26,020 nt of DNA from an uncultured archaeon (GCA_964473825.1 CAYYQL010000036.1:1-26020), one strand, 5' to 3'. Counted from the stretch's first letter, positions 10,096-21,108 are shown. Translations and numbers: made by a program. The notes: a model not told the origin generated them from the letters alone.

Positions 10096-11898
10096 TCATC
10101 CAGCCATCGCTTGATGTGCCTGAATCTGCAGTTCGTACAAGGAATAGTACTTACCTCTCTTCTTCATGAGTTCGGCATGATTTCCGGACTCAACAATCTT
10201 GCCATCTTCGAGGACAAGGATCCTATCAGCCTTGACAATGGTGGAAAGCCTGTGAGCAATGACTATTGATGTCCGATTCTTCAAGAGCGCCTTCATTCCC
10301 TTCTGGATTGCGTATTCAGTATACACATCTATTGAACTCGTGGCCTCATCTAGCACCAGGATTCGAGGATTTGCCAGCAGCGCGCGAGCGAAACTCACAA
10401 GTTGACGTTCTCCCTCGCTGAGCCGTTCACCGCGCTCGCCCACCTCTGTATCAAGTCCGTTTTCAAGTCCTTCAATTATTCTTCGAGCACCAATTGCGTC
10501 AGTGGCAGCAACTACCTCCTCATCACTGGCATCTGGCCGCCCGTACTTGATATTCTCCCTGACAGTACCCATGAACAGGAACGAGTCCTGAAGAACGAGA
10601 CCAATAGTCGCTTGAAGTGAGTTTAGAGTCACATCTCGAATATCAATACCGTCAATTCTGACAGATCCCTTGTCTACGTCGTAGAATCTGTTCAGAAGAC
10701 TGACGACCGTTGTCTTTCCGGCACCAGTGTCCCCAACGAGGGCTATCGTTTCGCCTGCTTGTATCTCGAGGTTGAAGTTCTCAAGTACGTTCTTACCCTC
10801 AACATAGCTGAATGTGACATCATCAAATGCGATGTGACCATCCACATGAGGCATCTCGATTGCGCCCGGTCGGTCACGTACCGTTGATTCCGTGTCCATG
10901 ACCGTGAAGACTCGCTCACCACCAGCAAATGCGCTCTGTACACTGGTGTAAAAGTTGGAAATGATCAGAATCGGCCTGAAGAACTGATCGCTGAAGCGGA
11001 TGAACATGATAACTGTTCCGAGGGTCACAAGACCCTGGATGAGCCTCATTCCTCCAAACCAGAGTATGAGGAATGTTCCAAGACCACCGATGAAACGGAT
11101 TGAGGGGAAGAAAGTAGATTGTGCCTTTCCCGCATCTACGTTGGACTCGTAGTCTGCTCGGTTTACTACATCGAAGTTCTCTACGTTGATTCTCTCGCGG
11201 GCAAAGCTTTTGGTGACCTTAGCGCCAGATATGCTCTCAGCCAGGTTCGCAGTGACAACCGAAATGGTCTTTCTGGTCTGCCTGTAGGCCTCCTTTAGCC
11301 GCTTTCGATAATATACGGTTGAAACCAGGAGGAGAGGAACCACGGCCAACGTGACCAGAGCAAGCTCCGTATCCACAGTGAAAATGACTCCTCCAATGGC
11401 AACCACAATGAATACTTGAGCGAAGGCATTGATGAGACCACCATTGAGCAGTTCACTCATTCTGTCGATATCGTTTGTCAGTCGAGAGATAACTCGGCCA
11501 CTTGCAGATTCATCGTAGAAGTCTTGGGAGAGCGCCTGTAGATGTGAAAAGAGATCTTGCCTGATATCGTAGATGGCATTCTGGCCCATCCAGCTCATGA
11601 GATACTCACTACCATATGTAGAAACCCAAGAGAGTATCTGCAAAATCACATAGATGGCTGCTGTCATCATGAGAGCCTGAAGATCACCACTAGGAAAGTC
11701 CACATCTATAGCTTGTCTGAGTACGAATGGAATCAAGACACTGGTCACGATTCCAAGCACCACAAAAGCAGCCACTGCTGCAAAAGCTCTTGGATATCGT
11801 AGAAGGTATCCGACCATCCGTTTCAGAAGCTGTGTATCAGAGAACTCGTAAGTCCTGGCCTCTGGCTCGTCCTGTTGGTTAAGAGCACTACTCACCAC
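10096..11898 (-). CDS. ABC exporter TMD-NBD half (TM288-like: intact Walker B Glu, degenerate signature)
   Basis: 6-TM domain, GDTGAGKT, LSEGERQ, LVLDEATS, IAHRLST. Confidence 0.93.
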   Translation of the reverse strand: MVSSALNQQDEPEARTYEFSDTQLLKRMVGYLLRYPRAFAAVAAFVVLGIVTSVLIPFVLRQAIDVDFPSGDLQALMMTAAIYVILQILSWVSTYGSEYLMSWMGQNAIYDIRQDLFSHLQALSQDFYDESASGRVISRLTNDIDRMSELLNGGLINAFAQVFIVVAIGGVIFTVDTELALVTLAVVPLLLVSTVYYRKRLKEAYRQTRKTISVVTANLAESISGAKVTKSFARERINVENFDVVNRADYESNVDAGKAQSTFFPSIRFIGGLGTFLILWFGGMRLIQGLVTLGTVIMFIRFSDQFFRPILIISNFYTSVQSAFAGGERVFTVMDTESTVRDRPGAIEMPHVDGHIAFDDVTFSYVEGKNVLENFNLEIQAGETIALVGDTGAGKTTVVSLLNRFYDVDKGSVRIDGIDIRDVTLNSLQATIGLVLQDSFLFMGTVRENIKYGRPDASDEEVVAATDAIGARRIIEGLENGLDTEVGERGERLSEGERQLVSFARALLANPRILVLDEATSSIDVYTEYAIQKGMKALLKNRTSIVIAHRLSTIVKADRILVLEDGKIVESGNHAELMKKRGKYYSLYELQIQAHQAMAG

Positions 11899-18398: not shown

Positions 18399-18614
18399 GA
18401 TTTGACTGAGAGCCGCAAAGAGCCCAGACATATGTGTGTAGGCGCTCGTTCATGATTGCACTCTCTCGAGGTCATCTTCACACGATACAAAACGTTGCGA
18501 TTTTTTTTTCCAGTTCCGTTGCTGAGCAGACCATCCAGATTTCAATCAACGATATCAGAAGATAAACTCCCGACCGAGTTATCTCCCAGACCACCGTCAA
18601 ATCTGTCCGAGCAC

Positions 18615-18631
18615 AGTCACAAATTGTGACT
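18615..18631. promoter_or_regulatory. Perfect 8-1-8 palindrome upstream of the micropeptide promoter
   Basis: AGTCACAA-A-TTGTGACT, about 30 nt upstream of TTATATA (18663-18669). Confidence 0.5.
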
Positions 18632-18701
18632 TCATTGCGTGACCCTTCATTGTGGCTTCGCATTATATACTGATTCTGAGTGTTATTCCTTGTGAAATAC
18701 A

Positions 18702-18809
18702 ATGGCTCTAGCTACCAATGACCAAGTTTCATTCGAGAAGAAGAACAGTTTCCAGGGCAACACCCACGCGGTCGACGCCCTCTACTACGCATACATCTAT
18801 CGGAGGTGA
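18702..18809 (+). CDS. Micropeptide 1 (35 aa)
   Basis: MALATNDQVSFEKKNSFQGNTHAVDALYYAYIYRR*; ATG 32 nt after a TATA box (short or no leader). Confidence 0.6.
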   Translation: MALATNDQVSFEKKNSFQGNTHAVDALYYAYIYRR

Positions 18810-18816
18810 TAGGACA

Positions 18817-18909
18817 ATGGCAATTACTCTAGACAACAAGCATCCCAAGGACAACATCTCGAAGGAGATTACTACCAAGGCTATTGCTGAGGCATTCTTC
18901 CGGAGGTAG
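18817..18909 (+). CDS. Micropeptide 2 (30 aa)
   Basis: MAITLDNKHPKDNISKEITTKAIAEAFFRR*; full SD GGAGGTGAT (18802-18810) 6 nt before the ATG. Confidence 0.68.
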   Translation: MAITLDNKHPKDNISKEITTKAIAEAFFRR

Positions 18910-18916
18910 GATCACC

Positions 18917-19027
18917 ATGCGTGATGCTCCCGACAGGAACACCTTTGATAACGAGGCCCCCAGCTCAGACCGCAGCAAGAGTAGTTCACTCTCGCTTGCC
19001 GAAGTGCTCGCGTTGGAAGCGACGTGA
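18917..19027 (+). CDS. Micropeptide 3 (36 aa)
   Basis: MRDAPDRNTFDNEAPSSDRSKSSSLSLAEVLALEAT*; SD GGAGGT (18902-18907) upstream. Confidence 0.58.
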   Translation: MRDAPDRNTFDNEAPSSDRSKSSSLSLAEVLALEAT

Positions 19028-19030
19028 GCA

Positions 19031-19044
19031 TTCTCCTTTTTCTT
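19031..19044 (+). terminator. Archaeal pyrimidine/oligo-T terminator
   Basis: TTCTCCTTTTTCTT immediately after the micropeptide 3 stop. Confidence 0.55.
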
Positions 19045-19308
19045 ATAATCACTACTCAGACTTGAACCAAATTGTTAAGCAGTCTTTAGCAACTGTGGAC
19101 CCACCGCGGATGGATATTTTCATATAACGGGACATCTATATCTCCAAAGGCTGCGATCTCGATGACTCGGCTTGGTGACTCTTGGCCGTTGCTGTCACAT
19201 AAGAAGTCGGGGAGCCGTCACCTATTAGGCGATCGCCTTTGAAGCAGTTGCAATCTCCTGTCCCTGTAGAGCTCCAAGTACGGAAACCTGTTAAGATGAG
19301 AGTTCGAC

Positions 19309-20514
19309 ATGAACGCAATGAAGAGAGCATATAGTAGAGAAGAAGTACGGAGGGTTCTGAGCGAGTCACACGGATTCTCTCCACTTGAGGAGGGGCATCA
19401 GGGCGTCCTGAATTGTTTCGAGAAACACCCCTGCGTACAGGTGGACTCGATTGATGTAGCTGGACGGAATCAGGACCTCACCCTATTCAGTCGAGTCAAG
19501 GACTACCGGCAAGAGTACCTCCAGAACCTTCTCTATGAGAAACGCGCTCTGTTCGAGTATTTCTGCAAGATGATGTCTATCATTTCAGTAGAGAAATACC
19601 CAATCTTTGGTTTCAGAATGAGTAAGCGAAAGCGGGAATACCGCCCATTCTTCGAGAAACACAAGGCGGAGATTGAGTTCATACTGGATGCCGTTAAGCG
19701 GGGGCCGATCTGCTCAAGAGATCTCAAACACATGGGTACAACCGAGTGGGGCTGGGGCCAGCGAGCACGGGTCGGAAACACCTTACTCACCAGACTCTGG
19801 GTCGCGGGCCTGCTAATGGTCCATCACAGATCTGGAAACACGAGGTACTACGGTCTTCCCGAGGTCATCATTCCCGAAGAATATCTGGAAGAGGATATTC
19901 CCGAGGAGAAGGCAGTCAAGGAGCTGGCTGCCATGATTGTCAAATCCTCTCGGATCGTATCCCCCTCAAAGGCCCCTGAACAGTGGCATGAGGTAGGTAA
20001 GGTGAAGGACGTGCGAGAAACTCTGGGGGCACTAGTAAGTGAAGGACGCCTCTTCACAGTGAATGTTGAGGACTGGAGAGGGGAACTCTATTGTCCAACG
20101 GAGGATGAACCTCTGTGGGAGGAGGTAACCGATCAACAAGATTCATTCGTGCGCTTTCTGGCCCCGTTAGACCCACTCTTGTGGAACCGTGCCCTGTTCC
20201 AACATATCTATGGTCATGAATACGTATGGGAAGTGTACAAGAAGAAAGAGGACCGAATCTATGGGTACTATTGCTTGCCAATCCTGTTCGATGGTGACTA
20301 CGTTGGCTTGATCGAACCTCGATTCCATTCGAAGAAAGGGGTCTTGGAGATTCGTAGCCTTCATCTATTCAGCAACTTGGACAATAGGAGGACATTCCAT
20401 GAGATGTTCAACGAGGAGATCACTCGATTCGTGAACTATCTTGGTGCGGAACGAGTTGAAAACTGGACGAAGCACAAGTGGCTTGATGGCCTGCTACAAT
20501 CCGCTCTGTCATGA
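19309..20514 (+). CDS. ycaQ: YcaQ/AlkZ-like (HTH_42) crosslink-repair DNA glycosylase
   Basis: VQVDSI (QxD), LFEY, LAPLDPLLWNR, YVWEVY...RIYGYYCLPIL. Confidence 0.88.
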   Translation: MNAMKRAYSREEVRRVLSESHGFSPLEEGHQGVLNCFEKHPCVQVDSIDVAGRNQDLTLFSRVKDYRQEYLQNLLYEKRALFEYFCKMMSIISVEKYPIFGFRMSKRKREYRPFFEKHKAEIEFILDAVKRGPICSRDLKHMGTTEWGWGQRARVGNTLLTRLWVAGLLMVHHRSGNTRYYGLPEVIIPEEYLEEDIPEEKAVKELAAMIVKSSRIVSPSKAPEQWHEVGKVKDVRETLGALVSEGRLFTVNVEDWRGELYCPTEDEPLWEEVTDQQDSFVRFLAPLDPLLWNRALFQHIYGHEYVWEVYKKKEDRIYGYYCLPILFDGDYVGLIEPRFHSKKGVLEIRSLHLFSNLDNRRTFHEMFNEEITRFVNYLGAERVENWTKHKWLDGLLQSALS

Positions 20515-20622: not shown

Positions 20623-21108
20623 CTACCATCTGTTCGTCCTGTGAAGATAGACGCGTCCAAAGAGAGCGAGAAGGCCAGTTATTGGAGTTGGCACCAGCCC
20701 TGTCAACATCCATATGCTAGGCGGGGAGGACAACGTGGCCAGCACCGGCATGCTAATCTGGACCAGCAATGCCGCAAGGGCTGAGAACCATCTCATTGAG
20801 TCTCGGTGGGCATCGTTTCCTTCTCTCCAAATGATCACTGCGAGGAAAAATCCAACTGCAAGAAGCACTGAAGCGACCAAGGGCTCCAGTCCAATCAAGG
20901 GAAACTCTGCGGTTCCAAGAGGTATGATGTATGCAAACACACCGGACCCACCATAGCCGAGGTATAATCTCCAGAGTGGAAAGTACCAGATGAAACCATG
21001 GGCAAAAATCGCAGTCGTGTATTGTTGAACGGCATACGGTGTGAAGAGTGTGCTGATGGCTACTAAGACAGGCAGGATATTCTCTGCCTTTCTGAAATCT
21101 CGATGCAA
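20623..21108 (-). CDS. Hypothetical multi-TM membrane protein
   Basis: 161 aa with 4-5 hydrophobic segments; start uncertain (TTG). Confidence 0.6.
   Translation of the reverse strand: MHRDFRKAENILPVLVAISTLFTPYAVQQYTTAIFAHGFIWYFPLWRLYLGYGGSGVFAYIIPLGTAEFPLIGLEPLVASVLLAVGFFLAVIIWREGNDAHRDSMRWFSALAALLVQISMPVLATLSSPPSIWMLTGLVPTPITGLLALFGRVYLHRTNRW

Follow-up and report, generated by a model that had tools for sequence, protein, structure and literature searches.

A probable autonomous three-cistron micro-protein operon in an uncultured Asgard archaeon, a divergent copy within a family found in Thorarchaeota

The window analysed here is the whole of a 26,020-nt stretch of DNA from the genome of an uncultured archaeon. 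An earlier note, drawn up from this sequence alone, had proposed that an apparently empty intergenic region at positions 18615-19044 holds a complete operon of three micro-peptides, and the palindrome, the TATA element, the three ORFs with their 7-nt gaps, the SD junctions and the T-rich tail were all found where it had placed them. All features described below for the window lie on the plus strand. The unit opens with a palindrome of 17 nt (operator site 1, 18615-18631), whose core GTCACA-N3-TGTGAC occupies 18616-18630. It is followed by two half-sites, GTGACCC (18639-18645), 13 bp past the GTGAC of the palindrome, and GTGGCT (18652-18657), another 13 bp further on and immediately 5' of an archaeal TATA box, TTATATAC (18663-18670, with TTATATA at 18663-18669). 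A TTGTGAA box and a short untranslated leader (18690-18701) complete the control region; the box resembles a fourth half-site and sits at the predicted transcript start.

The same elements were recovered in near-invariant order in an alignment of 32 loci, namely GTMACA-N3-TGTGAC, GTGACCC 13 bp on, GTGGCT after another 13 bp and the centre of TATATAC after a further 13 bp. The palindrome was conserved in 32/32 loci, the second half-site was near-invariant and the third invariant, and CTTGTGAA was conserved immediately 5' of the ATG. From its position and conservation we infer that TATATAC, invariant among the aligned loci, is the promoter element. The control region of the window fits this family pattern, with the first ATG about 31 nt past TATATAC, and it was among the best nhmmer matches for the operator region in the genome.

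Three ORFs follow, separated by 7 nt at both junctions. ORF1 (18702-18809), which has no SD upstream, encodes a basic micro-protein of 35 aa that we assign to type A; ORF2 (18817-18909) encodes a basic micro-protein of 30 aa, type B, with the C-terminus A-F-F-R-R; and ORF3 (18917-19027) encodes 36 aa of type C, with an acidic, Ser-rich and variable N-terminal part and an invariant EVLALEAT end. ORF1 terminates in CGG AGG TGA and ORF2 in CGG AGG TAG, each junction forming the SD of the next ATG: GGAGGTGA (18802-18809) overlaps the final codons and stop of ORF1, and GGAGGT (18902-18907), part of a direct repeat, overlaps the final codons of ORF2. The last codons of ORF3, its stop and 5 further bases form a terminator-like hairpin of 13 pairs (19003-19032), which the earlier note did not mention, directly followed by a T-rich termination tract, CTCCTTTTTCTT (19033-19044). 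The tiling of three ORFs is beyond chance: such a chain appeared in 0/5000 shuffles of the region, and a two-ORF chain in 79/5000. It had also been pointed out that the junctions and the following ATGs lie exactly 100 nt apart. This spacing is real in the window but is not conserved, since the paralogs differ and the ortholog in the related genome G002 has a 3-nt insertion; we thus regard it as coincidental.

The neighbours of the operon in the window are a DUF1028 gene, two DUF3795 genes and an AlkZ-like gene. A functional link with the DUF3795 genes had been considered and can be dropped, the neighbours being different at every copy of the unit. The AlkZ-like gene (PF06224, 19309-20514) is absent at the orthologous G002 site (L005, G002:C2), where homology resumes at window position 20637; this corresponds to an insertion or deletion of about 1.5 kb right behind the operon terminator.

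The architecture recurs at four other places in this genome and at about 70 loci in relatives. The genome, of 3.27 Mb, thus contains five paralogous micro-protein operons, the window unit included. Three of the further copies share the upstream block and the start of ORF1 with the window at 79-86% identity, and have an identical layout in a different neighbourhood each time. When only the block from operator to ATG is compared, the window copy is 90-91% identical to two of these paralogs and 74% to the third, and the ORFs are only 53-71% identical. The fifth operon was found by a motif scan of the six-frame translation and lies on the minus strand of contig C6 (G000, about 11395-11824). It contains three cistrons of the A/B type, two of them with TTG starts, and a C-type cistron ending in VLAWEAT; it has another TATA promoter, another palindrome, GTTTGTTTAACAAAC, and its own terminal hairpin, and its junctions are again CGGAGGTAG. 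One EVLALE match, on contig C67, was rejected as a chance occurrence within a longer unrelated frame. Downstream of the copy on contig C30, on the opposite strand, we observed a tRNA-like sequence (L003, about 1970-2090) that looks interrupted, possibly by an intron.

The search for homologues in related archaeal genomes recovered the unit in 21/24 genomes of the same taxonomic family and in 0/16 genomes from other families of the phylum, with up to 11 DNA matches per genome. The operator-plus-TATA pattern was present in 78/85 other genomes of the family (79/86 with this one), and a reversed control gave 0 matches. These comparisons place the window unit as a divergent copy among five operons of a family that appears restricted to Thorarchaeota, within the Asgard archaea. 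The operator, the promoter, the coupled SD sites and the terminator that the earlier note had described in a single copy are each kept across this family.

The peptide types were defined on the basis of about 70 loci. Type A peptides have 29-36 aa (median 34) and a median net charge of +4; they start with MAL, contain a KKN-like stretch and end in S-T-x-A-L-x-Y-A-Y-x(4)-R. Type B peptides mostly have 27-32 aa (median 29) and a median net charge of +5, with a MALAK start and the end S-T-K-A-I-x-x-A-Y-F-R-R. Type C peptides, of 33-40 aa and with a median net charge of -3, are Ser-rich and variable up to their EVLALEAT end. A and B align as one family, so that the proposed tandem duplication of ORF1 and ORF2 holds for these two, and ORF3 is unrelated to both. 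Comparison thus shows A and B to be homologous basic peptides with a conserved MAL start and a conserved, Tyr-rich predicted C-terminal helix, S-T-x-A-I/L-x-x-A-Y...R, and type C to be an acidic peptide in which selection acts on the last ten or so residues only. In the window, ORF2 and ORF3 fit the B and C patterns fully; ORF1 is a divergent member, with the A-L-Y-Y-A-Y...R-R tail but without the usual Q-S-T.

A and B are polar and weakly amphipathic, with a mean hydrophobicity at or below about 0 and a hydrophobic moment of 0.26-0.37 in the tail; Trp makes up 0.1% of the residues, and Cys 0.1-0.5% in A and B. Analysis of sequence composition detected no hydrophobic or membrane segment in A, B or C. 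AlphaFold2 predicted one helix for ORF1, confident at residues 21-35 only, and the prediction of an A+B+C complex with alignments scored 0.04, a value that has no bearing on binding either way.

Several lines of comparison argue that the peptides are coding and under selection across the family. The invariant Ser, Thr, Ala and Leu residues are each encoded by 3-5 synonymous codons, and pairwise differences concentrate at third codon positions, both in the last 12 codons of B (1349:750:3123 for positions one to three) and in the last 8 codons of C (194:51:641). At about 88-92% DNA identity, the G002 ortholog keeps all three frames intact with one in-frame 3-nt indel, and ORF1 is 98% identical between the two. 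In the conserved tails, synonymous divergence from this ortholog is high and non-synonymous divergence low; in the last 12 codons of ORF2 there are 7 synonymous changes over 8.7 sites and 3 non-synonymous changes over 27.3 sites. In the same comparison, evolution of the N-terminal half of C is close to neutral. A profile search of 1.84 billion proteins returned 42 matches, nearly all stand-alone proteins of 29-42 aa, and none of the 42 belongs to a larger domain protein. Comparative evidence thus supports the proposal of the earlier note, a regulated polycistron whose products are real small proteins that gene callers have missed. Three B-C fusion proteins of 69-90 aa in the public protein library (P0024, P0027 and P0035) were rejected as gene-calling artefacts: the contig of P0027 (L055) translates to the query only when TAG is read as Gln, and P0024 and P0035, which have a Q at the same position, probably represent the same artefact.

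Were the locus a non-coding RNA gene present in multiple copies or a small mobile element, its open frames would be incidental; this would account for the promoter block and the 3' hairpin being the best-conserved DNA and for the occurrence of copies in unrelated contexts. This explanation is hardly credible in view of the third-position bias and the turnover of synonymous codons at invariant residues. Moreover, the frames are open at every locus despite the near-neutral evolution of the N-terminal part of C, every copy has an ortholog of its own within the genus, and Rfam 15 gave 0 matches at gathering score over the whole window. A mobile element was rejected because terminal inverted repeats are absent. 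A tRNA scan of the window found nothing.

The proteins themselves matched no family in Pfam or NCBIfam and gave nothing below E = 0.48 against PDB sequence profiles and no usable match in the ESM Atlas. ORF1 of the window is absent from 15 billion predicted proteins, among which members of the family are named "hypothetical protein" at most, and we found in the literature neither a description of this A/B/C micro-protein family nor a family model for it.

The Arg-Arg ends of A and B call for caution, as had been anticipated, because they may be by-products of selection for the SD. In type A, AGG is the final codon at 23/26 loci, compared with 17% genome-wide, and either AGG or AGA encodes the final Arg residues at 75-88% of loci (genome background, 17% and 29%), far above the average in both cases. 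The RR ends are thus partly shaped by SD selection. The tail of C has a second constraint of its own. The hairpin at 19003-19032, the sole terminator-like site in 18400-19320, has a predicted energy of -20.4 kcal/mol (z = -3.0), and the last seven codons of ORF3 also build it. Over the 15 loci compared, the outer 6-bp stem is mostly kept, with a few single cells mispaired and compensatory changes at 2 pairs, and T-rich tracts lie 3' of the hairpin at the 15 listed loci. Changes within the hairpin are almost all synonymous. The C tail is thus constrained both as peptide and as RNA, and its conservation is partly owed to the RNA hairpin.

The operator was also recovered in a short, two-site form upstream of other genes. 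In this genome, one such site (G000:C9:32045; L033, G000:C9:29000-37000) lies 16 nt past a single-copy winged-helix gene of the HTH_45 family (G000:C9:31714-32025) and is followed by a gene for a 414-aa protein with a bactofilin domain. This arrangement is repeated in at least 8 other genomes of the family. Among 21 short-operator sites read, a bactofilin-like gene was downstream at 11; of these 11, nine have an HTH_45 gene upstream, which ends 16-29 nt from the operator in 8 cases and 229 nt from it in the ninth. At 9 of the 21 sites the short operator precedes the gene for a membrane protein with ten predicted transmembrane segments (10-TM). This protein (L036, L044-L047, L049, L052, L054) has 360-390 aa, five repeated two-helix units and an N-terminus that is first acidic and then Arg-rich, and it belongs to no Pfam family. 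A specific DNA motif is thus shown, at the level of sequence, to be common to the micro-protein operons and to membrane-related genes.

HTH_45 was present in 77/85 other genomes of the family; in the one genus without operator and close bactofilin ortholog, it was not found either. In a genus where no micro-peptides were found, a degenerate short operator lies 5' of the bactofilin-like gene. The operator was not downstream of HTH_45 orthologs outside the family at the five loci read (families f12, f2 and f5), so that it is gene adjacency that makes the HTH_45 protein our candidate regulator. In a neighbouring family, one locus (L117, G187:C123:17734-17787) has a similar three-site operator with a membrane protein downstream and no micro-peptides, which hints that the switch may be older than the peptides. 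A bare palindrome, GTCACAATTTGTGAC, without half-sites or TATA box, was observed in this genome at C63:5948 (L034, G000:C63:3000-9000), where a gene for a 476-aa winged-helix (MarR-like) protein begins; a second MarR-like gene adjoins it.

The long form of the operator, sampled by pattern alone (n=38), leads into a type A peptide in almost all cases; about 10 loci continue as A-B-C and about 11 as A(-B)-MFS transporter, and one operator goes directly into an S41 peptidase. In relatives, the MFS gene often occupies the place of peptide C, and at the sampled loci C and MFS were never together in one operon. Where the transporter is of the MFS_3 type, its start is joined to the Arg-Arg-stop/SD junction of B by the very same coupling as the start of C. 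The MFS orthologs of this genome lack both operator and peptides, so that the transporter link is drawn from relatives, and no exporter or immunity genes adjoin the window operon or the other copies. A paralog of the peptide-linked MFS transporter in this genome (L098, G000:C39:16705-18036, minus strand) has one in-frame TAG; pseudogenization, a sequencing error or recoding at this site may account for it. At the locus with the peptidase (L061, G044:C1:572224-574178), the long operator directly precedes a Peptidase_S41 gene (C-terminal processing protease), and 1.7 kb away another operator is associated with a B peptide and an MFS gene. As all three peptides are C-terminally conserved, this single case is suggestive.

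Our best guess, at somewhat less than even odds, is that A, B and C serve as small, soluble accessory or cargo proteins in a membrane and transport regulon, whose candidate members beside the peptides are the MFS transporters, the bactofilin-like protein and the 10-TM membrane protein. In such a regulon, the MFS transporter found in place of C in many relatives could be the target of A and B, or could handle them. The polar character of A and B and their lack of a membrane segment count against an accessory role, being unlike most known small transporter partners.

The coupling to MFS genes can also be read as export. A and B would then be secreted without a leader, with the MFS protein as exporter, and would serve either antagonism (in the manner of bacteriocins) or signalling, and the acidic C would act inside the cell as a neutraliser or immunity partner. 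There are several cationic peptides of 27-36 aa per operon and multiple diversifying copies per genome, the transporter translationally coupled to B in relatives is of the Pfam MFS_1 or MFS_3 ("transmembrane secretion effector") type, and C and MFS never co-occur. However, the peptides are hydrophilic, almost Trp-free and of low hydrophobic moment, which sets them apart from membrane-active leaderless bacteriocins; the five operons of this genome include no operator-linked exporter; and conservation lies in the C-terminal helix, with no variable "warhead". The export of 30-residue peptides by an MFS protein would itself be unusual. We therefore consider this reading unlikely. A broader version, a lineage-specific peptide system in which a dedicated winged-helix regulator simultaneously switches on many dispersed operons, A and B are the cargo or working subunits of MFS proteins and the acidic C is their intracellular partner, seems to us just as doubtful; if true, Asgard archaea would gain their first described peptide-based system of export, signalling or antagonism.

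Still less probable is that A and B are regulatory upstream ORFs, that is, arrest or sensor peptides whose C-termini act in the ribosomal tunnel and whose pausing at the Arg-Arg-stop/SD determines how far the following cistron (C or an MFS pump) is translated. The focus of conservation on the last 12-14 residues, beside the stop, would suit such a role, as would the overlap of this stop with the next SD and the position of A and B, always 5' of the transporter where there is one. However, in most operons, including all five of this genome, the largest thing to control would be a further micro-protein, conservation extends to the N-terminal MAL(A/T) and KKN motifs, the junctions are too tight for an RNA switch, and multiple dispersed copies are unexpected for a leader acting in cis.

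RiPP-like precursors, another suggestion of the earlier note, would have to be matured by enzymes encoded elsewhere in the genome. The small size, the presence of several paralogs and the invariant Ser-Thr pair of A and B would be compatible with this, but no modifying enzyme gene was found in the flanks of the roughly 70 loci read, A and B are almost free of Cys, the conserved region is C-terminal and helical instead of a leader with a variable core, and Pfam and NCBIfam contain no match. We regard such precursors as very improbable.

With a probability of roughly 0.78, which covers the anatomical reading below but not the role, we thus read positions 18615-19044 as a real, autonomous three-cistron micro-protein operon of an undescribed family restricted to Thorarchaeota. 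According to its anatomy, transcription would start about 25 nt (23-27 nt) past the TATA box, near 18688-18692, under the control of a dimeric DNA-binding protein, possibly the HTH_45 winged-helix protein, that would recognise the palindrome together with the two half-sites at their 13-bp phasing. ORF1 would be translated from a very short leader without SD, by near-leaderless initiation, and ORF2 and ORF3 by termination-reinitiation coupling via the SD built into the preceding Arg-Arg-stop codons. The transcript would end at the hairpin formed by ORF3 codons and the following T-tract.

No closer relatives of eukaryotes are known than the Asgard archaea, of which almost none have been cultured. 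The operon illustrates that their annotation misses genes of such size, and points to a family-wide, multi-copy micro-protein system under selection with a clearly defined operator of 45 bp. The candidate regulon, with its micro-proteins, MFS transporters, bactofilin-like cytoskeletal protein and 10-TM protein, offers a first sketch of a transcriptional regulon in the phylum. The seven codons that serve both a conserved peptide tail and a terminator hairpin are a clean example of double use.

Among known systems, the arrest or leader peptides ErmCL, TnaC and SecM precede a regulated gene and come with an RNA switch or a masked SD, whereas the window operon ends in a terminator with nothing larger after it. 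RiPP precursors typically have a conserved leader and a variable core rich in Cys, Ser or Thr; the layout is reversed in the Thorarchaeota peptides, whose C-terminus is conserved, although a follower-type layout is possible. Bacteriocins, small transporter partners and spore proteins offer closer analogies, each of which fails at least one defining feature tested. Leaderless multi-peptide bacteriocin operons are known in Firmicutes (aureocin A70, enterocin L50, garvicin KS), together with psm-alpha of Staphylococcus aureus. Here too, a single small operon contains, head to tail, the genes for several peptides of 20-45 residues without signal sequence, and these peptides are cationic, duplicated paralogs, sometimes with an adjoining exporter. 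However, the bacteriocins are often Trp-rich and hydrophobic or amphipathic, whereas the Thorarchaeota peptides are hydrophilic and weakly amphipathic, include an acidic third member and belong to an archaeal host. The transporter linked to them is of the MFS and not the ABC type and accompanies none of the copies in this genome, and there is no sequence similarity.

Several small proteins of bacteria are partners of transporters, as in AcrZ-AcrB, KdpF-KdpABC, MgtS, SgrT-PtsG and MntS-MntP. They resemble the Thorarchaeota peptides in having fewer than 50 residues and in being co-regulated or co-transcribed with a membrane transporter, as B is with MFS in relatives. In contrast to A, B and C, most of them consist of a single transmembrane helix; the Thorarchaeota operons contain 2-3 peptides each, transporter binding by them is putative, and the co-regulation with a transporter that characterizes modulators of the AcrZ/KdpF/MgtS type is seen in relatives but absent in this genome. 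Finally, the multigene families of small acid-soluble spore proteins (SASP) of Bacillus, whose DNA-binding role is known, differ in being monocistronic, 60-70 residues long and controlled by sigma factors, and have no sequence similarity to the Thorarchaeota peptides, but they are likewise very small proteins encoded in dispersed multiple copies under one conserved type of promoter and firing together.
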